A stretch of DNA of 64,000 nt from Candidatus Margulisiibacteriota bacterium (lineage in GTDB: Bacteria; Margulisbacteria; Marinamargulisbacteria; JBFWNS01). This document shows positions 37,928 to 63,599 of this stretch, piece by piece; the first letter of the stretch is position 1; each line of letters opens with the position of its first letter. Location: NCBI GenBank assembly GCA_050250935.1, contig JBFWNS010000001.1, forward strand, positions 512,122 to 576,121, read 5' to 3'. The notes under the pieces are model-generated. The model saw only the letters and a program-made list of their open reading frames with translations, had not been told where the DNA came from and ran no database searches. A program made the translations under genes and the position numbers.

Positions 37928-37990
37928 CAGAGGACTGTTGGCGGTATAGAGGTAGGGATTCAGGCATTGGCCGGATGGGTGGTTAGGGCA

Positions 37991-40124: not shown

Positions 40125-40302
40125 TCCTTTTTAAACTTTGCTTTTGCAAGCGTATCTTATATTTTTCAGTGGATTAAGTTTTTGGGGATGATTGCTGAGG
40201 TAGGCTTTTCCGATCCATTCGATTATAAATTTTATCTACATTCTGAGAATCGTGTTTCAGAGGGTTGGGCTTTTGAGTGCAGATCTTCAAATCCCTAAAA
40301 TT

Positions 40303-40548: not shown

Positions 40549-40552
40549 ATTT

Positions 40553-46709: not shown

Positions 46710-47759
46710 CTAAAGGCTGGTGGCTTCCGAGGGCAAACTGGCCCGTCTGCCCATCCATTTGAGCAGGCGTGCGGACATCAGTTTCGCTTGGACGATGCTG
46801 GAGAGTTTCTCGACCAATTTGTGGTTTAAAAAGGGTTTGGTGACATAGTCGGTGGCCCCAGAGCGCAGGGTTTTGACGATCAGGTCCGTGTCTTTGAAGG
46901 CGGTTAACATGACAATGGGGATGTTGGGGTTGGCGGCTTTGAATTCCGAAACCCATTTGTCCCCAGATTTGCCGGGCATGCCGATGTCTAGCAAAATTAA
47001 ATCGATGCTGGTTTCGCTGGTTCGGGTGGCCGTAATTTTTTCGAGGGCGTCTTCCCCTGAGGTGGTTTTGAGAACGGTAAACTCGGTGATGAGGGCCATT
47101 TCGATGCCGTCGAGCATGTGGGGTTCATCGTCGATGGCCAAAATGACGGGTTTGGGCCAATTGCCCAATTGCTTGGTATGGGTTTTGGTTTCCATGGCTT
47201 GCAAAATTTCGGGTTGCGTCATGTCGATAAACGGGTCGTGATAGGGAAAATACAGGGTGATTTCGCTGGGCAGAATGGGGCTTCCCGATTCCTTTTTTTG
47301 AGCCAGAAATTTTTTGAAATTTTCAAGGCGTTCTTCGATTTCGAAGGTGGTATTGCGTTCCAGCTCCCGATTCAGAACCTCGTGGGCCACTTGGGTGTCG
47401 AAGGATTGTTTAACGGCAATGCGAAATTCCAGGTCATGGAAAGGACGCTGAAGAATATCGGCGGCCCCAATTTTCATCCATTCCACAGCGGTTTTGGCGG
47501 TCAGATGGTTGCTCAGAACCAAGATGTGGGGTAGTCCTAAAAAAGCTTCAATTTTGGGAATCAGGTCGGTGGGTGAGGCGTCTGGCAGGGTGGCCGACAA
47601 AATAATCAAGGGGGTGACGGGATTGGTTTCCAAGGTTTCCAGTGCTTCTTTGGCCGAGGTTGCGGTTAGGACGTGGAAATTCTCTTCTTTTAAGACGGTT
47701 TCCATCCAAGAAAGTTCAGTTGGCGTTTCTTCGACCAGCAGTACTTGAGTTTGACGCAT
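46710..47759 (-). CDS. Tandem receiver-domain protein with no output domain
   Basis: N-terminal degenerate REC (LIILSATLPD, no phospho-Asp); C-terminal canonical REC (IDDE, LLDIGMPG, MLTA, DYVTKPF). Confidence 0.85.
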   Translation of the reverse strand: MRQTQVLLVEETPTELSWMETVLKEENFHVLTATSAKEALETLETNPVTPLIILSATLPDASPTDLIPKIEAFLGLPHILVLSNHLTAKTAVEWMKIGAADILQRPFHDLEFRIAVKQSFDTQVAHEVLNRELERNTTFEIEERLENFKKFLAQKKESGSPILPSEITLYFPYHDPFIDMTQPEILQAMETKTHTKQLGNWPKPVILAIDDEPHMLDGIEMALITEFTVLKTTSGEDALEKITATRTSETSIDLILLDIGMPGKSGDKWVSEFKAANPNIPIVMLTAFKDTDLIVKTLRSGATDYVTKPFLNHKLVEKLSSIVQAKLMSARLLKWMGRRASLPSEATSL

Positions 47760-47816: not shown

Positions 47817-48197
47817 TTAACTTAATGGTAAAACATTTTTGATGAGTTTGGTAATGGCTCGTTTTAGTTTTCGGTCATCGACGATGCTGCCATAAAAACA
47901 ATGGGTGGCACCGGCATGGTCGACACAGCCTTTCCAAGACGGATCGTTGTGGGTCATCAGCGCCATAATAGGTGTTTGGGGGTAAGAGGCCTTAAAATGG
48001 CGAAGCGAAATGGGGCTGGGTGAAATCACGGTGGTGTCTTCGATAATCAATAAATCGGGCTGGCCTTCGTCGTTTTGAACATAAGCCAAGGCTTCGGATA
48101 GGCTGGGGCGGTGGTGAACTTGGTGGGGATGGGCTACCAGTTGAATTAATGCTGGGGCTACGGCGCTTTTTGAAATCACCAAAATATTTTTTTTCAT
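47817..48197 (-). CDS. Small atypical receiver-like protein
   Basis: KNILVIS...EALAYV...PDLLIIED...YPQTPIMALM...GATHCF follows a REC fold pattern; ATG after GGGAG. Confidence 0.55.
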   Translation of the reverse strand: MKKNILVISKSAVAPALIQLVAHPHQVHHRPSLSEALAYVQNDEGQPDLLIIEDTTVISPSPISLRHFKASYPQTPIMALMTHNDPSWKGCVDHAGATHCFYGSIVDDRKLKRAITKLIKNVLPLS

Positions 48198-48257
48198 ATA
48201 ACAGTTCTCCCTTTGGTTTTGTTTAAACAAAATCATCCTATGAACAGCAGCACGTTG

Positions 48258-48439
48258 GATGGTTTCCTGATTGATGATCCAGAGGCCTCCTTGTTTGGTT
48301 TTTATTAAGAAACTTTATTGTTAGTTTCCTATATTGTTTCCTACGGTATACCAATTTTATACCCGTGTAAAGCCTGAAAAAAACGGGTATACTAAATAAT
48401 TATCCGAAAATCAAAAAAAGTTTATTGCAGGAAACCATC
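48258..48439. promoter_or_regulatory. Divergent promoter region with repeated GTTTCCT/AGGAAAC sites and inverted repeats
   Basis: 12-bp inverted pair GATGGTTTCCTG (48258) / CAGGAAACCATC (48428); GTTTCCTA at 48324 and 48336; TATACCCGT-N16-ACGGGTATA at 48358..48391. Confidence 0.55.
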
Positions 48440-49078
48440 ATGAATTTAGCCACGGTGTTGCGCATTCAGATTCGAAAGCTTCAGTTGTCCGACTATGAAT
48501 TGGCTATGAAAAGCGGGGTCACCAAATCGGGTCTTAGCAAGATTTTGAATGGAAAAACCAAAAATCCGTCCTACGACACCTTGGTTGCTTTGGCCGGTGC
48601 TTTGGATTTGAATGTGCACGTGTTGATGGATGCCTTGCCCACCAAAAAACAGGTTCCAATGCTCCAAAAAACAGAGGTTTCGGCCTCGATCCAGCAGGTG
48701 CCAGTGGTTCAGTTGGGGGATGCCAATCGCAATAGTTCCCCAGATTTTTTGCGTAAAAAAGCCTATTCGTTTTTGGCAACGCCTGTTCAAGGAGACACGG
48801 TGTTTGCCGTTCGACTCGACCGGGATCAATACCCCTTTATGGCCGACCAATTGGCCCTCATTAACCCCGAGCTCGAGCCCAACGACGGCGACTTTGTGCT
48901 GATGCGAACAGCCGGCGTCGATGCCAAACTAGGCCGCTATACTTTTTTCGAACGCCAAGAAGCCATTGTGGGCCTGGAGTCCGGTCGCGATCACTGGGTA
49001 GAGCCCCTTCATGACAATCGGGAAGAGTTGTTGATTGGGGTGGTGGTTCAGGTGGTTTGGGTGTTGGTGGAGGGGTAG
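48440..49078 (+). CDS. XRE-family HTH regulator with degenerate S24-like C-terminal domain
   Basis: ELAMKSGVTKSGLSKILNGKTKNPSYDTL HTH; VPVV...FAVRL...INPELEPNDGDFV...LIGVVV. Confidence 0.85.
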   Translation: MNLATVLRIQIRKLQLSDYELAMKSGVTKSGLSKILNGKTKNPSYDTLVALAGALDLNVHVLMDALPTKKQVPMLQKTEVSASIQQVPVVQLGDANRNSSPDFLRKKAYSFLATPVQGDTVFAVRLDRDQYPFMADQLALINPELEPNDGDFVLMRTAGVDAKLGRYTFFERQEAIVGLESGRDHWVEPLHDNREELLIGVVVQVVWVLVEG

Positions 49079-49093: not shown

Positions 49094-49636
49094 TTAAACT
49101 CTATGCCCGAGCTCCTTTAAAAAATCGTTAACCAAATGGCCTTGATGTTCTTGCTGGGACCAATGTTGGACATCTTTGATGTCAATGGGTTGTGCTTTGG
49201 CTACAGCGATAGCCTGGTGGAGTGCGGTTTTGTCTTGCCAGTGATAGTAGGCGGCCAACCGGTCCTTAACACAGTCTGTTGGGGTTAGCAGTTTTAGTTC
49301 TCCCAATCCCGAGTTTAGGTTGTGATAGGTGTCGATAGGCGTATTTCCAATGGCGATGGGAGGGTTTAGAAATTCAATAAAAAAGGGACAGTCAGGATGG
49401 GTAAAATATTTTCGTTTATCGAAGAGAAATCCAAGTGTTTCCATTGCCTTTAGTGTTCCCTTAATCGGATCGTACGAAATAAAATCAAGGTCGTAGGACA
49501 TAAATTCGTTGTGGGCATAGATGGTAACACAAGACCCGCCCACCAAAACGGCATCAATTCCGTTCTTTTGAAGGTGGGTTGCGACTACGGTTGCCAGATC
49601 TTGAATGGAAAGGGTTTTAAAATCGAGAGGTTGCAT
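49094..49636 (-). CDS. AbiEii-like nucleotidyltransferase (putative type IV toxin)
   Basis: AVLVGGSC...SYDLDF pol-beta NTase motif; start MQPLDF 5 nt after the upstream wHTH gene. Confidence 0.7.
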   Translation of the reverse strand: MQPLDFKTLSIQDLATVVATHLQKNGIDAVLVGGSCVTIYAHNEFMSYDLDFISYDPIKGTLKAMETLGFLFDKRKYFTHPDCPFFIEFLNPPIAIGNTPIDTYHNLNSGLGELKLLTPTDCVKDRLAAYYHWQDKTALHQAIAVAKAQPIDIKDVQHWSQQEHQGHLVNDFLKELGHRV

Positions 49637-49641
49637 AGGAC

Positions 49642-49983
49642 TTAAGGTAAAGAAAAGGGTTTTCCGGTTCGACGGGGGCGGGTTCGTTCTTTGGGTAGAT
49701 AAAGAAGTTGATATTTTGGGGGGAGAAAGGAAAACCCTTTTTTTAAAAAGGCCTGAAGTTCGGTTAACAACGGGTAGCGTGGGTTCCAATCATAGTATCG
49801 GATGTTTCCTTCCTTAAAACTGATCAGAATCCCCGCTTTTTCCAATTTAAGAAGGGCTTGTTGCATGGTAAATAAGGACACTTTAAAGTGGTCGGATAGG
49901 CGTTTGGCATAACAGGTTGTGTTGTTGAGAAGGAAAAACAGTATTTTTTCTGTGGTTTGGTTTCCAAATAGGCGTTCGAGCAT
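49642..49983 (-). CDS. Winged-helix regulator (putative antitoxin)
   Basis: LERLFG...KILFFL...MQQALLKLEKAGILIS..EGNIRYY.WNPRYP, an ArsR/MarR-like wHTH in an operon with the NTase. Confidence 0.7.
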   Translation of the reverse strand: MLERLFGNQTTEKILFFLLNNTTCYAKRLSDHFKVSLFTMQQALLKLEKAGILISFKEGNIRYYDWNPRYPLLTELQAFLKKGFSFLPPKYQLLYLPKERTRPRRTGKPFSLP

Positions 49984-50056
49984 CAAGCTTTCCTTGTACC
50001 AATAATAATGGTAATAGTACCAACAATATTGGTTATTTTAAACCCTTCATTTTGGT

Positions 50057-52771
50057 CTACCCCACCGGCAAAAACAAACGAAACGCCGTTCCTTTTCCCA
50101 CTTCCGAGTCCACCTGAATGGTGCCGCCGTGGGCCAGGATGACGTCTTGAAGAATCGAAAGACCTAGGCCGGCGTTTTTGCCACCGGTTGGGCCTTTGGT
50201 GGTGAAGAAGGGGTGGAAGATTTTTTCTTTGGTTTCGGCGGAAATGCCGGGACCGTTGTCGGCGATATTGATTTCGATGCCCGGAATCTGGCGGCCCTGG
50301 TGGCCCAGAAAAGTGGCCTTTTTGGCGGTGACGACAATGGATTTGTCGGGTTTTTCCAGCGGTTCTAGGGCTTGAATGGCGTTGAACATCACATTAAACA
50401 CGGCTTGCTGAAGCCGCAATTCGTCGCCGCGAATTTGGGGCAGGGATTTATCGAGATCCAGGGTTAGGGTAATGGCAATCTTGTGGGCACTGCCGGCCAA
50501 AATGCTTTGGGCGCTTTTAAGAATTTTGGCGACGTCGACCTTGGTTTTGACCGCACCTGGTGTGTTTTGAATGTGCCATTGCACGGCATGTTCGACGGGC
50601 AAAAATCGGGGGGATACATTCAATTTGAAGTTGGGGGATTCGTATTGAAAAGACTCCAAGGCATAGCCTTTGTTGTCCAAATAGCCCTTCTCGACCAACT
50701 CGTCGAACAAGGCTTCGGAGTCGGTTTCGGAGATCCCTTCGATTTGGGTGAAGCTGTCTTTTTTGACTCCACCCCCAGACATGCCATAGCGCATCATGTT
50801 GTCGGCGATGTACAAAATGCGGGTGTACTGGGTGGCGGCGGTGTTCAGATAGGTATAGACCCCAGCCAGTTGCAGAACGGTTTTCATGGCCTCTCGGATG
50901 GCGACGATGTGGTCCTTAAAAGCGTCTCCCAAATCCAGCTCCGAGGCGTCCATCAGCAAGGGATTGAGCTTGGTGGTCAGTTCCCCGGCTTCTGTAAGGT
51001 AGCCTTCGGCTTGCAGGGCTTCTACCACCAGGCGGGCTTGGGTTCTGTCTCCACCGACAGCCCATAAAAACTGTTCGGGTCCCACAAAAAACCGCCAGAG
51101 CCGCTGGTGATAATCGTCGTTTTCGTCGACCACATCGTAGTGGGTGCCGCCCAATTTATCGGCCAAAAACAACATGTGGGCTTGCATGGCGGCCATGGGA
51201 TTTCGAATTTCGTGTGCAATGCCGGTGGCCAAGGTGGCCAAAGAGGCTTTATGAGAGAGTTCTTGGGCGATGCGGATGCTGGTTTCGCTTTTTTGGACCT
51301 CTTCTTGAACGCGTTTTTGAAGTTCTTGGTTGAGGGAGTCCAGTTGGTCGTAGGCGTTTTTGAGTTTTTCTTGGTGTGCAATGCGGTCAAAAACGATCAT
51401 CACTTGCGAAATAACCGAGGCAAAGAGTGCAATGTCTTGCTGAGTCCAAGGTTCTTCGGAGAGTTTGGGGCCTAAAATCACCAGGCCTTGTAAATAGAGG
51501 TTGGAATGAAAGGGAATGACCAAGCTGCCTTTAAACGGCGACAAGGGGAAACGGTGTTTGAGTTCGGGGTCCAGGTCGTCCCAAAACACGATCGAACCAT
51601 CGGCGTGAAAGCGTTGGATCAGCAGGTTTTTGGGGGGAAGGACGTGTTCGGTATGGGCCCGGGCATCCAAGGACGCCGAGAGTTCTTGGCAGTGGTATTC
51701 GACCCGGTGGGACAATTCGTTTTCATAGGCCAAAACGGTAATGACATTTTTAATTTGGATGGTATTGGCAAATTCCCCAGTGACAACGGCAATGACATCG
51801 TCCCTGGAATTGGCAATAAACAACCCCTGAGAAATGGCCTGAACAACCTTTTCGACGTTGTAAAAGCCCTTCAAAAACTTGGTTTCCAAGGGGGTCTGAA
51901 TCAGCCGCTGAATATCCTGCCCATAGCCATACCAAGCCAACCCCAGCAGCATGTAAAACGGCAACGAAAACCCAACCCCCAAACTCGTCAACACCCCATA
52001 CAAAACCCCAAACGACCCCGCCGCCACCACCCCTGTAATGATCTTGGAGTCGCGTTTGGCGATTAGGACTTTGATGTCCATTAGGTTGTGTTTGGTGATG
52101 AGGTAAGAGGTCATTAGAGCAAAGACACCAAGAAGAGCCGAGGAGCTTAGGTTAAGAAGGCTGGCCAGGAAAGGTGTAAATTTAAAAAGGATAAGAATGA
52201 AGTAACATAGGCCTGCTAGTATCAAAATATTTAAGGCGATTAGTAGGCGGAAAAATTTCTGTTTTTCGGCTATTGCAGGAGTGGCTTTAATTTTTTTTAA
52301 AAGTTCCCAGAACATTAAAATGGAAATAGTAGAAAAAAAGATTAAATAGATGTACCAAAAAAAATCTGGTGTGGTAACAAATCGAGCCCCAAAGTACAGG
52401 GTTACGCCCGTACGAAACTTCCAAAACCAATTCGATAAAAATAATAGAGCCCCTAAAATGCCGCTTACATAAAGATAGACGATAAAGTTGCTCAAAATAA
52501 AAGTGTTTACCACCGCTACAAGCGAGATAGGAAATATAACTGCAACGCTGTAAATGAGCTTATCGGTTAAAAATGCAAGTTGATAGGAATGTGTATTACT
52601 TTGAACGTAGCACCCCATTGCCCAAAAAAATAACAAAACGCAAAACCATAAAAAGATTCGATTTTGTGTGCTTTGGTTACTTTTTGTGAAAACATATATC
52701 CCTAAAACAAGTGTAAAAATCCCAGAGACTAATGGAGACAGGCGGCTAATTTCTATGATGAGATGCAGCAC
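50057..52771 (-). CDS. Sensor histidine kinase HK3 (7TM sensor - membrane/GAF-like linker - HisKA with insertions - HATPase)
   Basis: Multi-TM N-terminus; GIAHEIRNPM H-box; FNVMFNAIQA, IADNGPGI, IFHPFFTTK, GLGLSI. Confidence 0.93.
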   Translation of the reverse strand: MLHLIIEISRLSPLVSGIFTLVLGIYVFTKSNQSTQNRIFLWFCVLLFFWAMGCYVQSNTHSYQLAFLTDKLIYSVAVIFPISLVAVVNTFILSNFIVYLYVSGILGALLFLSNWFWKFRTGVTLYFGARFVTTPDFFWYIYLIFFSTISILMFWELLKKIKATPAIAEKQKFFRLLIALNILILAGLCYFILILFKFTPFLASLLNLSSSALLGVFALMTSYLITKHNLMDIKVLIAKRDSKIITGVVAAGSFGVLYGVLTSLGVGFSLPFYMLLGLAWYGYGQDIQRLIQTPLETKFLKGFYNVEKVVQAISQGLFIANSRDDVIAVVTGEFANTIQIKNVITVLAYENELSHRVEYHCQELSASLDARAHTEHVLPPKNLLIQRFHADGSIVFWDDLDPELKHRFPLSPFKGSLVIPFHSNLYLQGLVILGPKLSEEPWTQQDIALFASVISQVMIVFDRIAHQEKLKNAYDQLDSLNQELQKRVQEEVQKSETSIRIAQELSHKASLATLATGIAHEIRNPMAAMQAHMLFLADKLGGTHYDVVDENDDYHQRLWRFFVGPEQFLWAVGGDRTQARLVVEALQAEGYLTEAGELTTKLNPLLMDASELDLGDAFKDHIVAIREAMKTVLQLAGVYTYLNTAATQYTRILYIADNMMRYGMSGGGVKKDSFTQIEGISETDSEALFDELVEKGYLDNKGYALESFQYESPNFKLNVSPRFLPVEHAVQWHIQNTPGAVKTKVDVAKILKSAQSILAGSAHKIAITLTLDLDKSLPQIRGDELRLQQAVFNVMFNAIQALEPLEKPDKSIVVTAKKATFLGHQGRQIPGIEINIADNGPGISAETKEKIFHPFFTTKGPTGGKNAGLGLSILQDVILAHGGTIQVDSEVGKGTAFRLFLPVG
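51194..52105. repeat. 912-bp direct repeat, copy A (constant region of HK3)
   Basis: Matches 54407..55318 at offset 3213; I saw only three substitutions, all synonymous, near the H-box end. Confidence 0.95.
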
Positions 52772-52789
52772 GGACTGAATCCTTTTTGA

Positions 52790-54310
52790 TTAAATTCTTT
52801 TCTTTGCTATTGGTAGCACAAGATCTTTCAGTTTTTGAACTGTTTTTTCAATTTGCTGAAAGGTGTGATTCGCAGTAACAATGAATCTTAATCTCCCATT
52901 CCCTCTTTTAACAGCAGGGTAAACAACAGAAACTGTAAATATACCCGCATTTAAGAGGCTTTGAGAAGCTTTTAGTAGCGCTTCCTCATTATCTATAAAG
53001 ATTGGAATTACAGGGCTTTTAGAGTGACCAAGTTCAAAGCCACTTTCTAAAAGAAGCGTTCTCATGTAGATGTTATTTTGGTGAAGACGTTTTGTAATAC
53101 TAGAATCTTTTTCTAAAATTTCTAAAGATGCAATAACTGCTGCTGTATCGGCAGGACTGCAAGCTGCTTGAAAAATATAAGCATTCGCAGCCCATTCTAA
53201 CAATGCCCGAAACTTTTTAGCGCAGGCGATAAATCCACCTACCGATGCCGTTGCTTTTGACAAAGTTGACATTAAAAAATCCACTTGTTCCGTAACCCCT
53301 AGCTCAGAGCATAGCCCTGCTCCGCGCTGTCCGTAAAAACCGAAGGTATGAGCTTCATCAACATATAAAAAAAACTTGAATTGTTTTTTCAATTCACAAA
53401 TTGCTTGAAGCGGGGCTAAATCGCCTGACATAGAATAGGCCGATTCCACCACAACAAAAACATTTAAAAATTGATCCTTAATGGAAGAGAGTTTTTTTTC
53501 TAGATCGTTAACATCATTGTGGCGAAATGAAAGAAAAGTTGCTCCGGAAAGTCGAATGCCATCAATGATAGATGCGTGGCTTTCTCGATCAAAAATGATT
53601 AAATCTTTTTTTGTGGCCAAGCCAGATATGGCGCCAAGGTTTGTACTGTAGCCGGTAGGAAAGTAAAGGGCATCTTCTTTGCCTACTAAAGAAGCCAGCT
53701 TTATTTCTAGATGTTTGTGAAGGCTATTGTGCCCACAAGACATGGCGGAGGTGCCTGCACTTGTGCCATATTGGGCAAGGGCTTTTTGGGCAGCCTGGAT
53801 CACACGAGGATCGCGATTAAGCCCTGTGTAGTGATTGATGCACCAAAGAATGGCGTTTTTTTGTGCTCCAGTATTTGGGTCTTGGACAATCCCTTCTACT
53901 GAACTACCACTAACAGTAAAAAAATTTTGAGAAAATAATCCTTCTTGAATTTGGGTGTTTTTATGCTTTGTTAACTCAGTTGCAATTTCATTAAGAGGGA
54001 CATCGGCCTTTAACAACTCTTGGTAGAAAGAAAGAATGGGCTGTTGAGGTTTAGTTCCTAAGAAAGATGGAGCAGTGGGGGATCTTGTTTTGAACGCTAA
54101 GTTGGATAGTGAAATCACCGGTCTTCCATCTTCCGTGACGCCAACGACTGCAGATTTATCGGCGAGGTCTTGGTAGAAGGGGTTCTTCTCTAGGGTTTGG
54201 CGGTCTTGTTCAGATAGGGTTTTAGGGTGGTCTGGGAGACCATTTTCGGTTGTAGGTGATGGGGTTGAGGAGTTCACAAGGGTTTCTGAGGACGAGGCGT
54301 TCGTCGTCAT
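52790..54310 (-). CDS. PLP-dependent alpha-oxoamine synthase family enzyme (BioF/Spt/Kbl/CqsA superfamily); candidate signal synthase
   Basis: FPTGYSTN, DRESHASIIDG, FRHND, ESAYSMSGD, VDEAH, STLSKA (PLP Lys), RLRF; ~100-aa N-terminal extension. Confidence 0.88.
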   Translation of the reverse strand: MTTNASSSETLVNSSTPSPTTENGLPDHPKTLSEQDRQTLEKNPFYQDLADKSAVVGVTEDGRPVISLSNLAFKTRSPTAPSFLGTKPQQPILSFYQELLKADVPLNEIATELTKHKNTQIQEGLFSQNFFTVSGSSVEGIVQDPNTGAQKNAILWCINHYTGLNRDPRVIQAAQKALAQYGTSAGTSAMSCGHNSLHKHLEIKLASLVGKEDALYFPTGYSTNLGAISGLATKKDLIIFDRESHASIIDGIRLSGATFLSFRHNDVNDLEKKLSSIKDQFLNVFVVVESAYSMSGDLAPLQAICELKKQFKFFLYVDEAHTFGFYGQRGAGLCSELGVTEQVDFLMSTLSKATASVGGFIACAKKFRALLEWAANAYIFQAACSPADTAAVIASLEILEKDSSITKRLHQNNIYMRTLLLESGFELGHSKSPVIPIFIDNEEALLKASQSLLNAGIFTVSVVYPAVKRGNGRLRFIVTANHTFQQIEKTVQKLKDLVLPIAKKRI

Positions 54311-54382
54311 AAAGAGTCTCCTTCACAGGAAAAGATTTCCCCCGACTCAAGCCAACGCGTTTTGGAATGAATTTTTGTTAGT

Positions 54383-55936
54383 TTAGCATATCCGCAAAAG
54401 AAATCTCATGGGATTTCGAATTTCGTGGGCAATGCCGGTGGCCAAGGTGGCCAAAGAGGCTTTGTGGGAGAGTTCTTGGGCGATGCGGATGCTGGTTTCG
54501 CTTTTTTGGACCTCTTCTTGAACGCGTTTTTGAAGTTCTTGGTTGAGGGAGTCCAGTTGGTCGTAGGCGTTTTTGAGTTTTTCTTGGTGTGCAATGCGGT
54601 CAAAAACGATCATCACTTGCGAAATAACCGAGGCAAAGAGTGCAATGTCTTGCTGAGTCCAAGGTTCTTCGGAGAGTTTGGGGCCTAAAATCACCAGGCC
54701 TTGTAAATAGAGGTTGGAATGAAAGGGAATGACCAAGCTGCCTTTAAACGGCGACAAGGGGAAACGGTGTTTGAGTTCGGGGTCCAGGTCGTCCCAAAAC
54801 ACGATCGAACCATCGGCGTGAAAGCGTTGGATCAGCAGGTTTTTGGGGGGAAGGACGTGTTCGGTATGGGCCCGGGCATCCAAGGACGCCGAGAGTTCTT
54901 GGCAGTGGTATTCGACCCGGTGGGACAATTCGTTTTCATAGGCCAAAACGGTAATGACATTTTTAATTTGGATGGTATTGGCAAATTCCCCAGTGACAAC
55001 GGCAATGACATCGTCCCTGGAATTGGCAATAAACAACCCCTGAGAAATGGCCTGAACAACCTTTTCGACGTTGTAAAAGCCCTTCAAAAACTTGGTTTCC
55101 AAGGGGGTCTGAATCAGCCGCTGAATATCCTGCCCATAGCCATACCAAGCCAACCCCAGCAGCATGTAAAACGGCAACGAAAACCCAACCCCCAAACTCG
55201 TCAACACCCCATACAAAACCCCAAACGACCCCGCCGCCACCACCCCTGTAATGATCTTGGAGTCGCGTTTGGCGATTAGGACTTTGATGTCCATTAGGTT
55301 GTGTTTGGTGATGAGGTAGGCAATCGCAATTGTGTAAATAGAAACAAAGAAGTTTGCAAAAGGTGGGATGGGTATATTCATCCATAAAAAGTAATTGGTG
55401 CTGCCGCCTGAAAAAGCGATCAGAGTAAAACAAAAAATCAGTAAAAATTTTCTATCTTTTGTTTTGAGGTATTCCTTCCACAATAAAACATGGGCCAGTA
55501 AAACGTTCCCTAGAAAGTAGCCTAAGAATGGAAAAAATAGATGTCCGGCTTTTGGCCAAAGGGAAAACATCATCACAGGCTCTAACTTTAATATGAGTGT
55601 ATTTGTTAGGAGCTGAGAGCTAAAAAATAAACTACATCCCAGATTAAAATAAAATAAAATGGACTGGGTTTTTGAAGATTTATCAACCAGCTCATAAATA
55701 AAGTTAGTAAAAAAGAAGGGGATAAAGGCTGCCCCGACCATCAATAATCGACAATAAAGTAGAGCGGTGTTGTAATCTGTACTGTATTGCCAAAAAAAAT
55801 AGAAAAAGCTCCAAAAAGCTATTCCTAAATTGTAGAGGATATAGTATTTATACCTTGACTTATTGTGCGCAAAAATAGCTGCGAGAGCTAATGCTGTAAT
55901 ACAGTTTACAGCTGCAGAAATCCCAAAAAAATTCAT
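54383..55936 (-). CDS. Truncated sensor kinase HK2 (distinct 7TM sensor plus shared constant region, ends just after the H-box)
   Basis: Multi-TM N-terminus diverged from HK3; identical to HK3 from YLITKHNLMDIK to HEIRNPM, then RFLLRIC-stop; no HATPase. Confidence 0.9.
   Translation of the reverse strand: MNFFGISAAVNCITALALAAIFAHNKSRYKYYILYNLGIAFWSFFYFFWQYSTDYNTALLYCRLLMVGAAFIPFFFTNFIYELVDKSSKTQSILFYFNLGCSLFFSSQLLTNTLILKLEPVMMFSLWPKAGHLFFPFLGYFLGNVLLAHVLLWKEYLKTKDRKFLLIFCFTLIAFSGGSTNYFLWMNIPIPPFANFFVSIYTIAIAYLITKHNLMDIKVLIAKRDSKIITGVVAAGSFGVLYGVLTSLGVGFSLPFYMLLGLAWYGYGQDIQRLIQTPLETKFLKGFYNVEKVVQAISQGLFIANSRDDVIAVVTGEFANTIQIKNVITVLAYENELSHRVEYHCQELSASLDARAHTEHVLPPKNLLIQRFHADGSIVFWDDLDPELKHRFPLSPFKGSLVIPFHSNLYLQGLVILGPKLSEEPWTQQDIALFASVISQVMIVFDRIAHQEKLKNAYDQLDSLNQELQKRVQEEVQKSETSIRIAQELSHKASLATLATGIAHEIRNPMRFLLRIC
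54407..55318. repeat. 912-bp direct repeat, copy B (constant region of HK2)
   Basis: See 51194..52105. Confidence 0.95.
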
Positions 55937-55940
55937 GTCA

Positions 55941-57071
55941 CTAGTCCTTTTTTTGGATTTCCAAGTAGAGGATGGTGTTGTTTCCTCCTCTAAATAAGGT
56001 CTTTCTTTTCATATGCTCAAACGGAATATCCTGTGATAAGGTCTCCATTTCGGGAAATTCTCTGTAAATTAAAAACCAATCCATGAATGTTTCCATATAC
56101 CCTCGATCAACGGTGTCGTGTACAAAATTAGATACCAGTAGGTATCCCCCTGGTTTTAAAAGTTTAAACATAATGGAGGTTAGCTTTTGAGCCATTCTTG
56201 GGCTTAGGTAGTCATACAAGCCAGCCGCATAAACAAAATTAAAAGAATTTTCTTGAAAGTGAGAATGTCCTTTAATGAGACTAAAAACTGATAATTCTTG
56301 CGTTGTAATATTAAGGGAAGAATATTTTTCTTGGACTTTCTTTAGGGTTTCGGGATCGTGATCAAGGGCCAAAAACTGGCTTAGTTTTTTGCTTTGAACC
56401 ATCTTTGAATATTCAGCTTCGTGAAGGTGGCCGCAGGCTATTGAAAGGACGGTAGAATTAGGCGCATTTTCGGTTATCTCGTCGATTCTAGAGGCGATGA
56501 TTCTGATTCGATCACGAAGTGCTTCTCCGGACGGGCGGGTAACTGTGTAAGCCTGGATGGGGTTTGTTGAGTTGGTATCTTGATAAAAATAATCCAATAA
56601 AGCAGCGTCACCGGGGTAGCCTCTGGGTTTATCGAAACTGTGTTTTGTACAGGGGTCTCTAAAGATTATTTTAGAAATGGGGTGAGATAAAATGACCTTT
56701 TTTGCTGCTGATTTCCATATTTCTTCATGAGTTTCTTTCCTTAGGAGATTTAACTGCGTATAAAGATACTCCAAAGAAGGCAACAGGTTTTCAGTAGCAG
56801 CTTTTGTGTAAATATCGGTTAGAATTGCTTCCAGTTTAATTCTAAAACTGGTTTCGACGCTCTCGAAAATACCTGGAAAGGCTAGTCGTTCTGCTTTATA
56901 AACGGGTTTTGTAGGGGCAGGTGTATCGGACGGTTTTTGGTCGACATTGGAAAAATGAAGGCCAGAATAATGATTTAAGTCTGGAGTCGCTTCAGTTTTG
57001 GTTAGATGGTCTGATAAATCCGTAGAAACGGCATCTTTATAAGAAAAAGAAGTGGGTTTTTCCTGAGGCAA
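55941..57071 (-). CDS. Class I SAM methyltransferase, PhcB-like (3-hydroxy fatty acid methyl ester signal synthase family)
   Basis: KPRGYPGD, LSIACG, FVYAAGLYDYL, LKPGGYLLVSNF, METFMDWFLIYR; motif set recalled for the PhcB-like family and not verified by search. Confidence 0.75.
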   Translation of the reverse strand: MPQEKPTSFSYKDAVSTDLSDHLTKTEATPDLNHYSGLHFSNVDQKPSDTPAPTKPVYKAERLAFPGIFESVETSFRIKLEAILTDIYTKAATENLLPSLEYLYTQLNLLRKETHEEIWKSAAKKVILSHPISKIIFRDPCTKHSFDKPRGYPGDAALLDYFYQDTNSTNPIQAYTVTRPSGEALRDRIRIIASRIDEITENAPNSTVLSIACGHLHEAEYSKMVQSKKLSQFLALDHDPETLKKVQEKYSSLNITTQELSVFSLIKGHSHFQENSFNFVYAAGLYDYLSPRMAQKLTSIMFKLLKPGGYLLVSNFVHDTVDRGYMETFMDWFLIYREFPEMETLSQDIPFEHMKRKTLFRGGNNTILYLEIQKKD

Positions 57072-57155: not shown

Positions 57156-58754
57156 TCAGAGCGCTTTTATCTTAATTACAATCCCAGTCCCCCGACCCAT
57201 TTCAGAAGCCACAGAAATGCGTCCACCGGAGCTGGCAACGACTTTTCCCACAAAGGCCATTCCCAATCCATGACCCGTGGCCTTGCTGGTAAAGGATTGG
57301 CTGAAGAGTTTGGCTTGGACCTCTGGGCTCATGCCGGGGCCAGAGTCTTGGATGGAGAGTTCAAGGGTGTCGTTTTTTTGAGTGGCTCGAAACTGGAGGG
57401 TGTCGGTGGGGCGTTCGGGGTCTGCTTCTCGGGCTTCTTTGATGGCCTGGATGGCGTTGAGGGCTAGGTTCAAAAAGACCTGGAACCATTCGGATTCGTT
57501 GCCTTTGAAAGACAGGGTTTGAGGGCAGTCGATGGCGACTTCAATTTGAAGCATTCGGGTTTGAGCAATGAGTAATTCGGCGACGTTGGTGAAGAGCGCG
57601 TGGACGGTAATGGAGGTTTGTTCGGCTTGGCCCTTGTTGCCGTAGAGCATGATTTCGCTGAGGTGATGGAGCCGGGTTACACAGCTCAGAACCATGTCTC
57701 CAAACTTTTTGGCGATAGCGGGGTCTTCGTGGCCGACGGCGGGGCTGCCGAGTTGAATCATGCTCATTTGGTTTAGAATTTCGTGGGCAAAGCTTTTGCT
57801 GGCGGCGCCAAAGGCCGCTTCGTTGGCCAGTTTTTCGGCGGTTTCAATGGGGAGAATGAGGCGGTCGGTTTGGGTTTGGAGGTGGGTGCGGATGGGGTCG
57901 AAGGCAAACGCAAAGATTCCCAAGAGAAGTATAGAGAAAATGGTTTGTGAAAATAAGTTGTCCAGTATATGTGTCTGCCACAAGCTAAATTGAAGACCTA
58001 TGGTTATTACTGAAAAAAGGCAAAAGGTGATGGTAAATGCTAAGGTCTTGCTGACAGCCACTTTCATATTAAAGAGCTGGTGTTTGGTGATGCTGTATGC
58101 AACTGTTAAAGCCAATAAAGAAGGAGCTATTACACCAATTGGGTATAGCTTTATCCCAAAAACCAAAGGGAAAGTCGTTGCGCCACCGGTAAAACCAAGG
58201 ATCATTGACCCGAATAAAAGTCTCATTTGATCTTTGGGTAAATCATCACGTTCTAGGTAGGCCTTGTATAGCAAAAAAAGGCCAAAACAAACCAGCGCAG
58301 AGAATTGTAATGGAAAAAAGAAATAAAGTGGTCCTGCCACTGGATAAAGTGAAAACCAAGCAGCCGGCTTAACATCCGAAACAAAATAGGCGGGTAGAAG
58401 CAGGCATATACAGAAATAAACTGTGGTTATCGCAAAAAAAAATTTCAGTATGGCTCTTTTTTGAATATTGAGATAATTAAAAACAAATTGCAGGAAAAAA
58501 ATGGGTATGAAAATTGCAACCAGGTTTAAAAACCGAGCCCAAAATAATACCTCTGTTTTACTTTTAAATGTAAAGGCACAAAAAATACCTACTCCCCAAA
58601 GCCCTATAAAAAGTCCAAATAGTAGCCATGAAAAAATATCTGGTCGCCGGGTATTTTTTCGGACAATATAAGCTGTTAAAAAACATAAAGCAAAGATTAA
58701 TAGGCCGCTGATATTTAGATAATTTGGATGAAAGTAGAGTGATCCAATGCGCAT
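57156..58754 (-). CDS. Sensor histidine kinase HK1 (7TM sensor - HisKA - HATPase)
   Basis: Multi-TM N-terminus with AIFIPIFF and YSITKH; FAHEILNQ H-box; NLALNAIQA, IQDSGPGM, FTSK, GHGLGM. Confidence 0.9.
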   Translation of the reverse strand: MRIGSLYFHPNYLNISGLLIFALCFLTAYIVRKNTRRPDIFSWLLFGLFIGLWGVGIFCAFTFKSKTEVLFWARFLNLVAIFIPIFFLQFVFNYLNIQKRAILKFFFAITTVYFCICLLLPAYFVSDVKPAAWFSLYPVAGPLYFFFPLQFSALVCFGLFLLYKAYLERDDLPKDQMRLLFGSMILGFTGGATTFPLVFGIKLYPIGVIAPSLLALTVAYSITKHQLFNMKVAVSKTLAFTITFCLFSVITIGLQFSLWQTHILDNLFSQTIFSILLLGIFAFAFDPIRTHLQTQTDRLILPIETAEKLANEAAFGAASKSFAHEILNQMSMIQLGSPAVGHEDPAIAKKFGDMVLSCVTRLHHLSEIMLYGNKGQAEQTSITVHALFTNVAELLIAQTRMLQIEVAIDCPQTLSFKGNESEWFQVFLNLALNAIQAIKEAREADPERPTDTLQFRATQKNDTLELSIQDSGPGMSPEVQAKLFSQSFTSKATGHGLGMAFVGKVVASSGGRISVASEMGRGTGIVIKIKAL

Positions 58755-58764
58755 AGTGGTATGT

Positions 58765-58941
58765 CTAAAAAAACGGCTTACGATATACGTCCCGGCGGTG
58801 GGCTATTCTGAAAACGATAATTTGGCTTCCTTCAACGGTGTACAAAATTCGATAATCTCCCTCTCGAATGCGAAAGGCTTTGGACGCTCCGGCTAGTTCT
58901 TTGGCAGCGCTTATTCTAAGCGAAAGATTAAAGGCGGCCAC
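58765..58941 (-). pseudogene. RelE/ParE-family toxin with internal in-frame deletion (58 aa)
   Basis: Below ORF-track cutoff. GTG-AAFNLSLRISAAKELAGASKAFRIREGDYRILYTVEGSQIIVFRIAHRRDVYRKPFF; the usual central helix between AKEL and LAG is missing. Confidence 0.8.
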
Positions 58942-59146
58942 TTTTTTTAAGTTTGTTTTGCAAGGTGTCTATAGAAACGGTTTCTTCATGGTCTCTTTCA
59001 GCCAAAATGGTTAGATCGGCTAGATCTTCGATCAAATGTTGGTACACATCGAAGGTTAGCAAAACCATGCTTTTATTCCCTTGTTGATCCAAAACAAACT
59101 GGGGATTGAGTTGTGAATATTTTTTAAGGAGGTCTTGTTTTTTCAT
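58928..59146 (-). CDS. Putative type II antitoxin
   Basis: 72 aa, QFVLDQQGNKSMVLL..YQHLIEDLADL..; overlaps the RelE-like start by 14 nt. Confidence 0.75.
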   Translation of the reverse strand: MKKQDLLKKYSQLNPQFVLDQQGNKSMVLLTFDVYQHLIEDLADLTILAERDHEETVSIDTLQNKLKKSGRL

Positions 59147-59266
59147 GTCAAAAGGCTGCCTGTTTGTGGGTGTGTTTAAGAACCCAGTGCTCGTTTTATT
59201 GTACTTAAGCTCAAAAGCGGTTTCAAGCTAGTTTTTGGAAGTGGCTGGGCTGGTTGACAGTTAAAT

Positions 59267-59392
59267 CGTTGGTTACATTGCTCAGCCATCTAACTAACGA
59301 AAATCCGATCTTATGTAAGTTAGTCTATTGTAACTAACGCGGATGTTCGTTACACTTTTTTAAATAACATAAATTAATAAATTCGTTAGTTA
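59267..59392. promoter_or_regulatory. Four TAACTAACG boxes upstream of fic
   Basis: Forward at 59291 and 59331; reverse at 59384 and (one mismatch) 59267. Confidence 0.55.
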
Positions 59393-59397
59393 AGGAA

Positions 59398-60564
59398 GTG
59401 GTTATGAATAAGAAGGACCGTGTAGGGCGTTATGCCCAGTGTGTGGTAAAGACAGAATCGTATAAGGCGTATATCCCACAAAAACTGCCTCCAAAACCCG
59501 ATTTAGAGCTGGCGCCACTTTACAAACTATTGGATGAGGCGAACGCAGCGTTGGGGCGTTTGGATGGGATGAGATTTGTACTGCCAGACCCGTCTTTATT
59601 TTTGTATCTCTACATCCGAAAAGAGGCCCTTTTGTCTTCTCAAATTGAAGGCACCCAATCGTCTTTGTCTGATCTGCTTCTTTTTGAAGCAGAAGAAATG
59701 CCAGGCGTTCCTATCGAGGATGTGACGGAAGTTTCTTGTTATGTAGCTGCGATGAACTATGGATTGGCGAGGCTTAAAGCGTTTCCATTGTCTTTGCGGT
59801 TAATCCGAGAAATTCATGAAAAATTGATGACCCATTCCCGCGGTGGGCATAAAGCGCCTGGTGAATTTCGGCGATCTCAAAACTGGTTAGGGGGGTCCCG
59901 TCCTGGAAATGCCCGGTTTGTTCCCCCTCCACCTGAATATATTCTGGAACTATTGGGGGATCTTGAAAATTTTATTCATGATGAAACCATACAATTACCC
60001 GTGTTGGTTAAAGCCGCTTTGGTCCATGTTCAATTTGAAACCATTCACCCTTTTTTAGATGGAAATGGACGTCTGGGTCGTTTGTTAATTACGTTTATGC
60101 TCTGTGCCGAAGGGGTCTTACAAGAACCGTTGCTCTATTTAAGTTTGTATCTTAAATCAAACCGACAGGCTTATTATGATCATCTTCAACAGGTTCGGGA
60201 AACAGGCGATTGGGAAGGGTGGATTGTCTTTTTTTTAGAAGGAATTATTGAAACAGCAACACAAGCGACAGAAACGGCTCAGCGTATTTTGGCGCTGTTC
60301 CAACAAGACCATCATAAAATTGCTACCTCAGCAAAGGCTTCGAGAACAGCTTTGCAGGTGCATGCGTATTTGCAAAGGCATCCGGTGGTAACCACTTCTC
60401 ACCTGACAAAAGCCCTTAAAGTCGCATTGCCAACCATCTTAAGGGCCCTAGGACTCTTGCAAACGCAAGGCATCATTCGCGAAATTACAGGAAAAAAACG
60501 CCATCGCATTTTTGTTTATCACGACTATTTTGAAATTTTGAGTCAGGGGACGGAGCCTATTTAG
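59398..60564 (+). CDS. Fic family protein with N-terminal inhibitory helix and C-terminal HTH
   Basis: HPFLDGNGRLGR Fic motif; SSQIEG inhibitory motif. Confidence 0.95.
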   Translation: MVMNKKDRVGRYAQCVVKTESYKAYIPQKLPPKPDLELAPLYKLLDEANAALGRLDGMRFVLPDPSLFLYLYIRKEALLSSQIEGTQSSLSDLLLFEAEEMPGVPIEDVTEVSCYVAAMNYGLARLKAFPLSLRLIREIHEKLMTHSRGGHKAPGEFRRSQNWLGGSRPGNARFVPPPPEYILELLGDLENFIHDETIQLPVLVKAALVHVQFETIHPFLDGNGRLGRLLITFMLCAEGVLQEPLLYLSLYLKSNRQAYYDHLQQVRETGDWEGWIVFFLEGIIETATQATETAQRILALFQQDHHKIATSAKASRTALQVHAYLQRHPVVTTSHLTKALKVALPTILRALGLLQTQGIIREITGKKRHRIFVYHDYFEILSQGTEPI

Positions 60565-60782: not shown

Positions 60783-63599
60783 ATGTCTCGCTTTTGTTTT
60801 TTTAAATATCTTTCAACTTCTACCTCGACTTTGGATGCCTTTCACCGTTTAAAGGCGGAAAAAGTAGAGCTACGCAAGGCGTTGAAGGCCGAATTGCTAG
60901 AAAACCCACTAGAGACGCTGGATCGTTCCTTAACGCCTTATAATGAGAGACTTGTTAGAAAAGCATTCTCCCAAATGACTTATGAAGAGCAGCAACGGGT
61001 CTATTTGAAGGTCATCCAAGCCGGAACTCAGACTGCGGTTGCGTTTGTTTTGACCGAATTTGCGGGCCGATCTGTGAATTCCAAGTCTCCGTTTTTGGTG
61101 GCTTTGGAAGCGGGGCAGACCGATATTGCTTGTTTCTGTTTGGGCCGGTGTTCGGACGATTTGGTTAGCGAAGCCCTTCGACAAGAGAGCTCAGAAGCGT
61201 TGTCTTTTCTTTTAGAGAATAAATCCCTTTCGTTTAAAGAAGTGACAAGCCGGTTGCCTAGATCCGGATTTGTGGCTGCACATTTGGCCTTGGTTGTGGC
61301 TAAGTTTCCTGAACCTCGTTTTGAGGATATTGAAGCTTGCTCTTCGGTGGCTCGGGAACAGGTCTTGGCGGCATTGAAGTCTAATGGGGATTTGATGGAG
61401 AACTATAAAGTGCAGGCGTTGCGCGAAAACGCCAAGTGGGTAGAGGTTCTTTTTAAGGTCAGCCCGGACCGGGCTGATGCAGATGGCAATACAGTGGCCC
61501 ATCGGTTGGCAAGTAAGCAAGAGATCAAGGCCTTGCAACGATTGCGTTCGCTGGGGTGTTTGGGCGTTCCCGATGTTTTGGCCGTTAAAAATAAGGCAGG
61601 TCAAAATGTGCTTCATGTTTTGGCGCACTTAATGCCGCCGCCCGAGGGCTTAAAAGAGTTGTATTACAAGGCCAGTCAAGCTTTGTTTTTTGAGGCGGAC
61701 AATACGGGAAATACCGCCCTTCACCACGCAGCCCAAGTCGGTCAAGCCATGTTATTTACCGATTCTGATCTGAAAACCTCTGTTGTTATGCAATTCAGGG
61801 ATGTTTTTGAAACAAAAAATGAAGATCGTTTGTCGGTGTTCGAGTTGGCCATGCATGGGGAGCATGCTGAAATTGTTGCCGGAATTCAGAAGATTTGGCC
61901 AGGTGCCAATTTTAAGGTTCAAGGTCAGAATCCATTGATATTTGTTTTGGAAAAGGGTTTTCGCGACATGCTGGATTTGTTTGCTTTAAAGATAGAGGAG
62001 ATCGAAGATAAACAGGCTCTGGTTTTGGCCGTGCTTAAAGGGAAGCTGCTTCAGGATTGTTTTGCCATTGGCAGTGTCGGGCTGAAGGTTATGGCTGCCA
62101 TGGATGATGAAGCAACGGTGAGTGCCGTTATGGAAGATGTGCTAAAACGAAACGATATGGCGATGCTGCAGCAAATTGTGGAACTGCATTTTCAGTTTAA
62201 GTGGGGCGGCACGCCTCTTTTGCATCGGATTTGCCAACGACAGTGGGTTGAAGGGGCAAGATATGTTATCGAAAAAGAGGTTGATTTGAATTCGAAAAAC
62301 GTCTCTGAGCAGTTTGCACTTGATGTCGCCGTTGGGACGGGCAATCAGGCGATGGTAGTCTTGTTTGCACCTTACTCGAATGTGATGGAAGCGGTGTGCA
62401 GAAATCAAGCGACCGACTTGGCCGGGTGGGCTTTTGGGCAATATCCCCAGTACCGAACCCCAATGGCCTATGCCGAGGCCTATGCAACAAAAAATTCGGC
62501 TTTAATCCGGTGCTTGGAGCCGCTGTGTCAAACTGATGAGGATGAACAAACGAAGCTTCGGACAGGATCATTTAGCGTTGTACGCGCAGTCCCTGAAGGT
62601 AGATTTAATGTTGAGGGGGCTTTTGAAATAGCCACTCGTTTTGGCAATGTTGCGGGCTTGAGGGCGTTGGTTGATGCAGGACATACGTTGCCTGAATCGG
62701 TGTTGGCCTCTGCCATTCGTTTGCGCCAGACTGCTGTTGTAGAGTTCTATTTTGAACAGGCCCCAACGCCTAATGGTACTGAAGCAACGCTTGTTGTCGA
62801 GACGATGGGTGACGACAAACAGACCTATTTGAACCATTGTCTGAGTCTTGCGTATAGAGGGAACCTGGGACCACTGCAAAAGTTGGTCGCAAGGGGATAC
62901 GATTACGACCATACCCTAACGGGCTTAGAAATAGTGATGAAAAACACCGGGGATAAGGCTGTTGTGGAGTATTTTATTGCCGAATTTAAACCAGATGCCA
63001 CGGAATCTGAGAGGACAGAGGGTTCGACAGCCCTGCACGTGGCGGCGCGTTTGGGCAACGTTGTTGCAGGGAGACTCTTAATTTCGACCTATCCTCAGTT
63101 TAAAGAAAAACACACCAATGAGGGTTTAACGCCTTTGGCGGTTGCTGTGGTTCACAATCAATCAGCGTTTGTTGCCAAAGCTGTTGCGGAGTGGGGTTTA
63201 AATGTACATGCCGAGGACAGAGAGCGAAATTCTGTGCCCATGTTGGCTCTGCAGAACCATCATATCGAGTTGGCAAAAGAGTTGATTCCTAGTGTCGCAG
63301 TAAATCTTGGTCATCGCAATATCCATGGCCAAACCCTTCTAGACGCTGCTGCGGTTGCGACTACGTTGGATGGGCACCCCGATGTGACGGTTCTGACTCT
63401 ACTTTTGACTTCCTACTTGGAAAAATTCTCTCTTCAACAGATTGATGCTGCCTTTAAAACGGCAGAAGCCACGAGTGGCGATTTTGCAGAAGCGAAAAAG
63501 GCGTTATCCGATGCAAAAGAACGTCTTCGAACGATTTCCTCGCTGACCCGTTCCCAATCGGGAAGTCGACTGTCGCCAGTTGTTGTTGCTTCATCGTAG
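60783..63599 (+). CDS. Ankyrin-repeat protein
   Basis: DADGNTVAH, NKAGQNVLH, DNTGNTALHHAA, GTPLLH, EGSTALHVAA, EGLTPLAVAV, HGQTLLD; SD AAGGAG. Confidence 0.88.
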   Translation: MSRFCFFKYLSTSTSTLDAFHRLKAEKVELRKALKAELLENPLETLDRSLTPYNERLVRKAFSQMTYEEQQRVYLKVIQAGTQTAVAFVLTEFAGRSVNSKSPFLVALEAGQTDIACFCLGRCSDDLVSEALRQESSEALSFLLENKSLSFKEVTSRLPRSGFVAAHLALVVAKFPEPRFEDIEACSSVAREQVLAALKSNGDLMENYKVQALRENAKWVEVLFKVSPDRADADGNTVAHRLASKQEIKALQRLRSLGCLGVPDVLAVKNKAGQNVLHVLAHLMPPPEGLKELYYKASQALFFEADNTGNTALHHAAQVGQAMLFTDSDLKTSVVMQFRDVFETKNEDRLSVFELAMHGEHAEIVAGIQKIWPGANFKVQGQNPLIFVLEKGFRDMLDLFALKIEEIEDKQALVLAVLKGKLLQDCFAIGSVGLKVMAAMDDEATVSAVMEDVLKRNDMAMLQQIVELHFQFKWGGTPLLHRICQRQWVEGARYVIEKEVDLNSKNVSEQFALDVAVGTGNQAMVVLFAPYSNVMEAVCRNQATDLAGWAFGQYPQYRTPMAYAEAYATKNSALIRCLEPLCQTDEDEQTKLRTGSFSVVRAVPEGRFNVEGAFEIATRFGNVAGLRALVDAGHTLPESVLASAIRLRQTAVVEFYFEQAPTPNGTEATLVVETMGDDKQTYLNHCLSLAYRGNLGPLQKLVARGYDYDHTLTGLEIVMKNTGDKAVVEYFIAEFKPDATESERTEGSTALHVAARLGNVVAGRLLISTYPQFKEKHTNEGLTPLAVAVVHNQSAFVAKAVAEWGLNVHAEDRERNSVPMLALQNHHIELAKELIPSVAVNLGHRNIHGQTLLDAAAVATTLDGHPDVTVLTLLLTSYLEKFSLQQIDAAFKTAEATSGDFAEAKKALSDAKERLRTISSLTRSQSGSRLSPVVVASS

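Follow-up and report, generated by a model that had tools for sequence, protein, structure and literature searches.

The minus-strand locus at 50057-57071 of a 64,000-nt stretch of contig JBFWNS010000001.1 from a Candidatus Margulisiibacteriota bacterium (assembly GCA_050250935.1; the whole stretch is called the window below, and all positions are given on it) carries two unrelated enzyme genes, each followed by a different seven-transmembrane (7TM) sensor head on the same constant transmitter. The modularity of this arrangement was observed directly in related genomes. We consider it likely that the locus belongs to a polymorphic signal-synthase/receptor system, in which the enzyme makes a signal and the paired 7TM head reads the product; the signal chemistry and the switching we infer. 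It is best read as a counterpart of the agr and comQXP pherotypes that draws on unrelated chemistries, with an Rhs-like upstream orphan that could be activated by one crossover.

Five minus-strand genes follow one another in the order kinase A, methyltransferase, sensor B, oxoamine synthase and sensor C. Cassette B begins with a PhcB-like class I S-adenosylmethionine (SAM) methyltransferase (55941-57071, 376 aa), and sensor B (54383-55936, 517 aa) starts 4 nt after it. Sensor B consists of 7TM head B (55319-55936, 206 codons, foreign in composition) and copy 1 of the constant region (54407-55318, 912 bp), which encodes two membrane helices, a GAF domain, a coiled coil and an H-box with His504 of the sensor. 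A 96-bp junction (54311-54406) then supplies seven unrelated codons and a stop, so that sensor B ends 13 residues past its H-box histidine, and continues as the upstream region of the synthase; among the loci compared it gave short chance-level matches and no convincing homologue. Cassette C contains a pyridoxal phosphate (PLP)-dependent alpha-oxoamine synthase of the clade named AOS1 here (52790-54310, 506 aa, with an N-terminal extension of about 150 aa) and, 18 nt further on, sensor C (50057-52771, 904 aa). The latter is composed of 7TM head C (52106-52771, 222 codons), copy 2 of the constant region (51194-52105, 912 bp, with His520 of sensor C) and the single catalytic tail of the locus (50057-51193), in which a family-specific insertion of about 200 aa follows the H-box and precedes HATPase_c. 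Only cassette C is at present connected to this tail. The gene order, the two spacings, the 912-bp repeat and the truncation of sensor B relative to sensor C had all been described in an earlier note made from the letters of the window, and were confirmed from the open reading frames (ORFs), as was the tight coupling of each enzyme to a different head (heads B and C are only 23% identical to each other). A promoter and terminator scan found 16 promoter-like sites against 13.6 +/- 4.0 in shuffles, and was uninformative on the operon structure.

The two constant regions form a direct repeat of 912 bp that is 99.67% identical and encodes the same 304-residue peptide in frame in both copies; no third near-identical copy occurs in the 1.95-Mb genome. 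The three mismatches (51215, 51251 and 51254) are synonymous and lie within the last 62 nt of the gene-direction end. Such end-clustered mismatches could mark a conversion or crossover, but contigs drop variants and nothing was drawn from them. Base composition was compared at four-fold degenerate sites, which controls for the amino-acid bias of membrane proteins. Heads and enzymes have a GC content of 0.35-0.40 at these sites, as against 0.80-0.81 for the constant region plus tail, in a genome with 5th and 95th percentiles of 0.40 and 0.76 (1252 ORFs); the AT-rich character of enzymes and heads noticed earlier is thus borne out, at or below the 5th percentile.

None of the 55 class genomes compared (G0xx below; L numbers denote loci) is of the same family as the genome of the window (G000). 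Two of these, G012 and G039, belong to the same genus, with flanking genes 80-99% and mostly 94-96% identical. At one syntenic site with orthologues on both sides, G012 carries an AOS1 synthase and a C-type head, and G039 a methyltransferase and a B-type head, in each case joined to a constant region that runs into a SpoIIE tail. The DNA of the two is 78% identical over the core and tail, and the head and enzyme have no match except for a 113-bp patch at the enzyme 5' end; in blocks of 50 residues, protein identity is 12-28% in the head and 78-100% in most later blocks. The enzyme and head were exchanged here as a unit. The earlier note had held it against its own proposal if relatives always carried the same head and enzyme, and these two do not. 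Head C of the window is 43% identical to the G012 head and head B 43% identical to the G039 head, which follows the same enzyme type, while the constant regions of the window share 27-30% with those of G012 and G039. From these identities we concluded that the cassette types standing in tandem in the window are alternatives in G012 and G039, on a different output. G012 has a second informative pair of paralogous kinases, one with an enzyme resembling 3-hydroxy-3-methylglutaryl-coenzyme A (HMG-CoA) reductase and the other with a second methyltransferase type; the first 44 residues of their enzymes are 61% identical, the constant regions 69% and the heads 31%. In both locus pairs, the cassette is bounded on its right by a YxITKH junction, where the constant region begins, and the left border falls at or in the enzyme 5' leader. 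A related kinase with the same downstream XRE gene as in the window occurs in G027, with an HMG-CoA-reductase-like cassette.

A census of the heads gave a consistent picture. PF16927 (HisKA_7TM) had 76 matches in 32 of the 55 class genomes, and 82 heads from 31 genomes were recovered from these matches together with the earlier loci; the first 40 loci had been picked by likeness to the window genes, and the enzyme tally is thus not unbiased. The upstream ORF is co-oriented for 71 heads and opposed for 7, and 4 heads stand at a contig end. A small-molecule enzyme precedes 43 of the 82: methyltransferases, three clades of oxoamine synthases, HMG-CoA-reductase-like enzymes, AfsA two genes up (one of these labels, at L220, was given by homology of the intervening gene), polyketide synthase (PKS; one of these labels has a small ORF in between), non-ribosomal peptide synthetase (NRPS), acyl ligase, reductase-aminotransferase, FabH, thioesterase and histidine decarboxylase. 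AfsA is a known family of signal synthases. Quick trees were built from the 30 rows that remained after removal of 17 without a constant region and 35 without an enzyme label common to another row. On the head tree the enzyme subfamily changes 12 times, a count as low as which none of 500 shuffles came (their mean is 23.4); on the constant tree it changes 23 times, and 260 of 500 shuffles do as well. Host family behaves in the opposite way: the constant tree needs 16 changes, with no shuffle of 500 as low, and the head tree 22, with 323 of 500 as low. A first test with a strict motif cut had left 18 rows and pointed in the same direction. Since the head tree tracks the upstream enzyme and the constant tree tracks the host family, one polypeptide has two histories.

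The census also brought up several enzyme types at these sites. HMG-CoA-reductase-like genes are tightly coupled to 7TM receptors at L021, L022 and L034 and may represent an unrecognised class of signal synthase, and a 7TM head immediately preceded by a pyruvoyl-type histidine decarboxylase (L209:2-1429) may belong to a histamine cassette. Genes in the enzyme position with no clear Pfam family are candidate synthases of new kinds at L061, L068, L038, L197, L218, L055, L189, L192, L194, L198, L201 and L206.

The association was also followed from the enzyme side in 146 genomes of the phylum, where we examined 30 of 35 methyltransferase matches, 12 AOS1 matches and 18 weaker oxoamine-synthase matches. 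A head lies directly after the methyltransferase in 28 of the 30 loci (the other two have a second methyltransferase and a contig end, respectively) and after the AOS1 synthase in 10 of 12, as compared with only 4 of the 18 weaker matches. In all six held-out AOS1 loci with a head, the best match of that head was the C type. The syntenic swap, the dissociation of the trees and this held-out prediction bear out the central proposal of the earlier note, that unrelated enzyme and head cassettes sit on one constant transmitter and are exchanged as units.

Beyond the phylum, AOS1 was found at 37 loci in Cyanobacteria, Bacillota and others. A sensor (a hybrid kinase or a GGDEF-EAL protein; Pfam was run on four) follows AOS1 in 7 of 8 Bacillota loci, and at L153, L154, L156, L160, L161, L162 and L172 it carries a different conserved membrane head, which makes a second candidate synthase-receptor pairing. 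One deltaproteobacterial AOS1 enzyme is fused to GGDEF. An oxoamine synthase with a C-terminal GGDEF domain is encoded at L151:4815-6560 and, judging by length, also at L159 and L183. Several cyanobacterial copies adjoin large kinase-GAF genes, and a Calothrix assembly has two apparently identical AOS1 genes in tandem (L180:3007-6092). The two plasmid-borne methyltransferase homologues examined adjoin EAL proteins. A metagenome scan with the constant-region alignment worked as a generic H-box pattern, and its 80 loci are distant kinases.

The synthase is a member of the alpha-oxoamine synthase superfamily (Aminotran_1_2, E 3.3e-48, with the PLP lysine and DEAH motif), and its PLP-site residues H245, D318, H321, K352 and R473 are conserved, the first four being invariant in 8 of 8 aligned synthases. 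The earlier note had likened it to CqsA/LqsA, but it is not a member of that family: it scores 218.9 bits against NF005526 of NCBIfam (cut-off 428), and in the PDB serine palmitoyltransferase (SPT; E 4.7e-73) is far closer than CqsA (E 1e-31). It also falls below the housekeeping cut-offs for BioF (350.6 against 426.45 bits), SPT-CFB (346 against 640) and Kbl (312.6 against 460). Grouping with housekeeping BioF, which had been named as an objection, was not found, and the synthase forms the separate clade AOS1, apart from the BioF-like gene of the same genome on contig C2 (FastTree; the tree has no CqsA row). The other enzyme has the class I SAM methyltransferase fold (model pLDDT 95.6), as expected for a PhcB-like protein. 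The PhcB identity itself comes from the source-given names of homologues: 607 were found, and PhcB is the product name carried by the informatively named ones of the 120 listed, at 37-42% identity and with no Ralstonia PhcB sequence in the comparison. This enzyme had a single weak match among PDB sequences, and a fold search with its model returned generic methyltransferases with no substrate clue. The family of the methyltransferase points to a fatty-acid methyl ester as its probable product, and that of the oxoamine synthase to an acyl-amino-ketone-type lipid.

The heads of A, B and C all score strongly on a family profile built in this analysis, and a search with it found them to be the only convincing heads of the HisKA_7TM kind in the genome. 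The proposed assignment to PF16927 holds for head A (45.7 bits) and head B (31.3) and fails for head C (20.4, E 5e-4) at the cut-off of 28.6. A model of residues 1-500 of sensor C (64 aligned relatives, pLDDT 89.9) has seven helices, two further helices, GAF and coiled coil. The predicted seven-helix bundle of head C has the shape of a G-protein-coupled receptor (GPCR) or rhodopsin (best Z 16.6, rmsd 4.5 over 221 aligned residues), where helical bundles reach Z of about 13 through common arrangement alone and a shared fold shows no function; the constant part aligns with GAF domains at Z 14.9. HisKA_7TM is present in 109 of the 146 genomes of the phylum. No ligand work on it was found in the literature searched, and the accessible text of PMC5847659 does no more than name it as a sensor domain.

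Kinase A (57156-58754, 532 aa), which the earlier note had overlooked, lies directly upstream of the methyltransferase and consists of a HisKA_7TM head, a short linker without GAF, an H-box and HATPase, with no enzyme upstream. Its head groups with heads that stand elsewhere behind the MT2 methyltransferase or HMG-CoA-reductase-like enzymes (clade support 98), and on sequence grounds kinase A is a candidate orphan, listening-only receptor. The position expected for its enzyme (58755-60564) is occupied by a Fic gene, a RelB-like antitoxin (58928-59146) and, as judged by eye, a RelE-like remnant.

In the mechanism that we propose, each head would bind the product of its cassette enzyme, with which it is observed to be co-inherited and exchanged. 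On the precedent of PhcB, CqsA and AfsA and of their reaction types, the products are predicted to be lipophilic signals. Such a product would move into the membrane and, once bound by the head, act on the H-box by way of the GAF domain and coiled coil; phosphate would then pass to nearby receiver proteins; a double receiver-domain protein at 46710-47759 (minus strand), with homologues near many related receptors, is a candidate phospho-acceptor. Cassettes would be replaced by recombination at the YxITKH junction and in the enzyme 5' leader. In the window, cassette C is wired to the catalytic tail, and cassette B sits upstream as an intact orphan whose receptor lacks a kinase. By geometry, a single crossover between the repeats would take out 3213 bp, so that head B continues into the tail as an in-frame 888-aa kinase behind the methyltransferase, a change of language in one step.

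Other tandem arrangements were found in two genomes. G006 has a relic, in which an AOS1 synthase and a short remnant of a C-type head precede an HMG-CoA-reductase-like enzyme, a head and a kinase. G019 has two tandem head-plus-constant genes that share 80% identity over 906 bp and both break off before the H-box, with a related full kinase on another contig; no contig overlap of this kinase with the truncated tandem was found. Two intact enzyme cassettes together with a near-perfect repeat were found nowhere but in the window. Both in G000 and in G006 it is the upstream cassette that stands disconnected, as would fit insertion next to the core.

Several observations weigh against a signal-synthase/receptor system with a switchable orphan. 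No adjacent enzyme was identified for 33 of the 82 heads, and 6 stand behind proteins of unknown family. Kin are not independent in the trees, and the shuffle counts overstate significance. In the 82-row tree, the HMG-CoA-reductase-like heads are split, the G006 head of this kind is not grouped by its enzyme, and two large-PKS heads nest among methyltransferase heads. Two of the 12 AOS1 loci have no head, including L242 with the closest relative of the window synthase, and cyanobacterial AOS1 genes are often without a co-oriented membrane sensor. In X1, a sequencing run possibly from the same source, the synthase-head C piece has a depth of 17.4 and the methyltransferase-head B-kinase A piece a depth of 19, which (from contigs only) allows only a minor switched subpopulation.

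The strongest alternative, to which we give somewhat less than an even chance, keeps signalling and takes the tandem as a by-product of displacement: the new cassette was inserted beside the core, and cassette B is a decaying relic and not a reserve. The upstream cassette of G006 has already decayed to its short head remnant, no switched form is evident from the depths, and the available part of PMC5361080 describes sequential displacement in Vibrio effector-immunity arrays. Against this, the methyltransferase and head B are intact and keep the conserved residues of their families, the repeat is nearly perfect, and the exit arrangement recurs in a diverged strain of another study. Cassette B with such a repeat would remain switchable even as a relic.

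It is unlikely that the heads monitor a metabolite or membrane lipid of the cell itself, as feedback on a secondary-metabolite or lipid-tailoring step with no cell-to-cell message. The lipid-enzyme nature of the best solved relatives of the synthase, the serine palmitoyltransferases, would suit this idea, as would the PKS, NRPS or fatty-acyl ligase genes in several cassettes. Most cassettes, however, contain one enzyme without transporter or tailoring genes, and AfsA is among the cassette enzymes; repeated swaps of unrelated chemistries on one output fit housekeeping feedback poorly and match kin-specific signals.

Sensor B could instead work as a co-receptor that pairs with sensor C through the identical GAF domain and coiled coil, so that, with both enzymes produced, a single kinase would integrate two signals. 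Such a B-C pair would be a near-homodimer of a well-known kind. Sensor B does retain the head, GAF, coiled coil and phospho-acceptor histidine in one frame, and the tandem of G019 is cut at the same place before the H-box with a related full kinase elsewhere. We regard this role as improbable: by stopping so soon after the histidine, sensor B lacks the rest of the dimerisation domain that other receptors without a catalytic domain keep.

An anti-phage defence module made of a second-messenger enzyme and a membrane effector would suit the PADLOC matches of neighbours (strongly SoFic for the Fic gene at 59398-60564, and PDC-M05A at 49642-49986) but is very improbable: PADLOC matches neither sensor nor the synthase and gives the methyltransferase only a generic weak match, and the outputs are histidine kinases or SpoIIE phosphatases.

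The contigs of four runs were compared with the locus as an assembly check. Besides X1, they include X3, a shallow run of another study that holds a diverged strain and may mix strains. The repeat has a depth of 35.9 in X1, and the junction from the constant end to the synthase lies inside the contig of depth 17.4 and also in an X3 contig. Two X3 contigs each stop 30 bases into the repeat, one coming from the tail and the other from the synthase linker; this is below the 31-letter criterion for bridging, and was taken as the branching expected of two repeat copies. X1 has no contig across most of 50057-51193, a gap that carries no meaning in these filtered records. As the repeat has about twice the depth of its surroundings and both exits are seen in X3, the contigs speak against an assembly join, as far as such records go. 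The joining of alternative cassettes from two strains would be conceivable in a metagenome-assembled genome in which no contig of the four runs covers 50057-57071, but is hardly credible given the within-contig junction and the doubled depth. X3 also holds a more diverged copy of the constant region (54745-54990) that matches the window on one side and departs from it on the other, suggesting mosaic copies in that strain.

The system resembles agr and comQXPA, in which signal genes and the receptor N-terminus vary together on a conserved kinase core: the accessible text of PMC3673130 describes for agr a variable block over the signal genes and the N-terminal membrane part of the receptor, and that of PMC4008528 the N-terminal variability of ComP in comQXPA pherotypes. 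Those systems swap alleles of homologous peptide systems, whereas the varying genes here are unrelated small-molecule enzymes with predicted non-peptide products, and the cassettes hold no peptide precursor or homologous processing enzyme. In addition, the output domain here may be either a histidine kinase or SpoIIE, and there is a tandem of two cassettes. Ralstonia PhcB/PhcS also has a methyltransferase beside a membrane histidine kinase, for 3-OH fatty-acid methyl esters (PMC6989110, available part), and many homologues of the window enzyme are named PhcB; the receptor here is of the HisKA_7TM-GAF type, the genes do not follow the phcBSRQ order, and the cassette can be exchanged. As in Vibrio CqsA/CqsS and Legionella LqsA/LqsS, an oxoamine-synthase-superfamily enzyme adjoins a membrane sensor. 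CqsS is a six-helix sensor with a lipophilic ligand in the accessible part of PMC4821796; here the enzyme is outside the CqsA family and the head is a seven-helix HisKA_7TM plus two more helices. Rhs orphan modules carry a repeat of the core end and can recombine into fusions with the main gene (PMC3967940), and Vibrio type VI secretion system effector-immunity arrays retain displaced modules (PMC5361080), both as far as the accessible text goes. The cassette B orphan likewise carries a core repeat that permits in-frame fusion, in mirror geometry: its variable part is N-terminal, it lies upstream and has its own start codon, and the cargo is a signal enzyme and a receptor instead of a toxin and an immunity protein.

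The earlier note knew of no described system with this architecture. A variable synthase and receptor head on a constant kinase is known in principle from agr and comQXP; the exchange of non-homologous chemistries and the tandem orphan are new. A literature search that covered few subscription papers found no description of an enzyme plus HisKA_7TM cassette system, and supplementary comparative tables could bear on novelty.

In the signalling pherotypes known so far, alleles drift while the chemistry stays the same. Here it appears that entire chemistries are swapped on a common output. A lineage could in this way abandon a shared signalling group in a single step, which suggests bacteria able to change the chemical language that they speak and hear. 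The enzyme-head pairing also yields a ligand prediction for HisKA_7TM, a common sensor domain, namely the product of the neighbouring enzyme, and the window, where two heads sit on the same transmitter, amounts to a chimera experiment made by nature. More tentatively, and in our estimate rather doubtfully, a widespread family of GPCR-shaped receptors may each have its own single-enzyme signal from unrelated chemistries, with this locus as a maintained array that switches signal and receptor in one recombination step and a third, orphan receptor eavesdropping on another dialect.

Downstream of the sensor locus lies an XRE-type regulator (48425-49078, plus strand) with homologues downstream of the related kinases of G027 (E 2.5e-49) and G012 (E 4.4e-8), followed by a 139-aa protein (47817-48236, minus strand) that is receiver-like by eye and has no Pfam match. 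Between the kinase tail and this regulator (49094-49986) are a small helix-turn-helix gene and the nucleotidyltransferase-like gene of the PDC-M05A match; the equivalent position holds other genes in G027 (AAA-DUF4143) and G012. Two further kinases of G000 have the same tail insertion (C7:123222-127568, which breaks just before the H-box, and C10:3732-14531, a protein of 1722 aa), each followed by XRE-like and small receiver-like genes. An orphan array of toxin-immunity type (36000-45610) lies some 5 kb away from the sensor locus; in it an Rhs/YD-repeat gene (40553-45610, 1685 aa) is followed by core-end fragments in several copies, which bear alternative C-termini and have partner ORFs. A 938-aa ankyrin-repeat protein is encoded at 60783-63599, close to the contig end.

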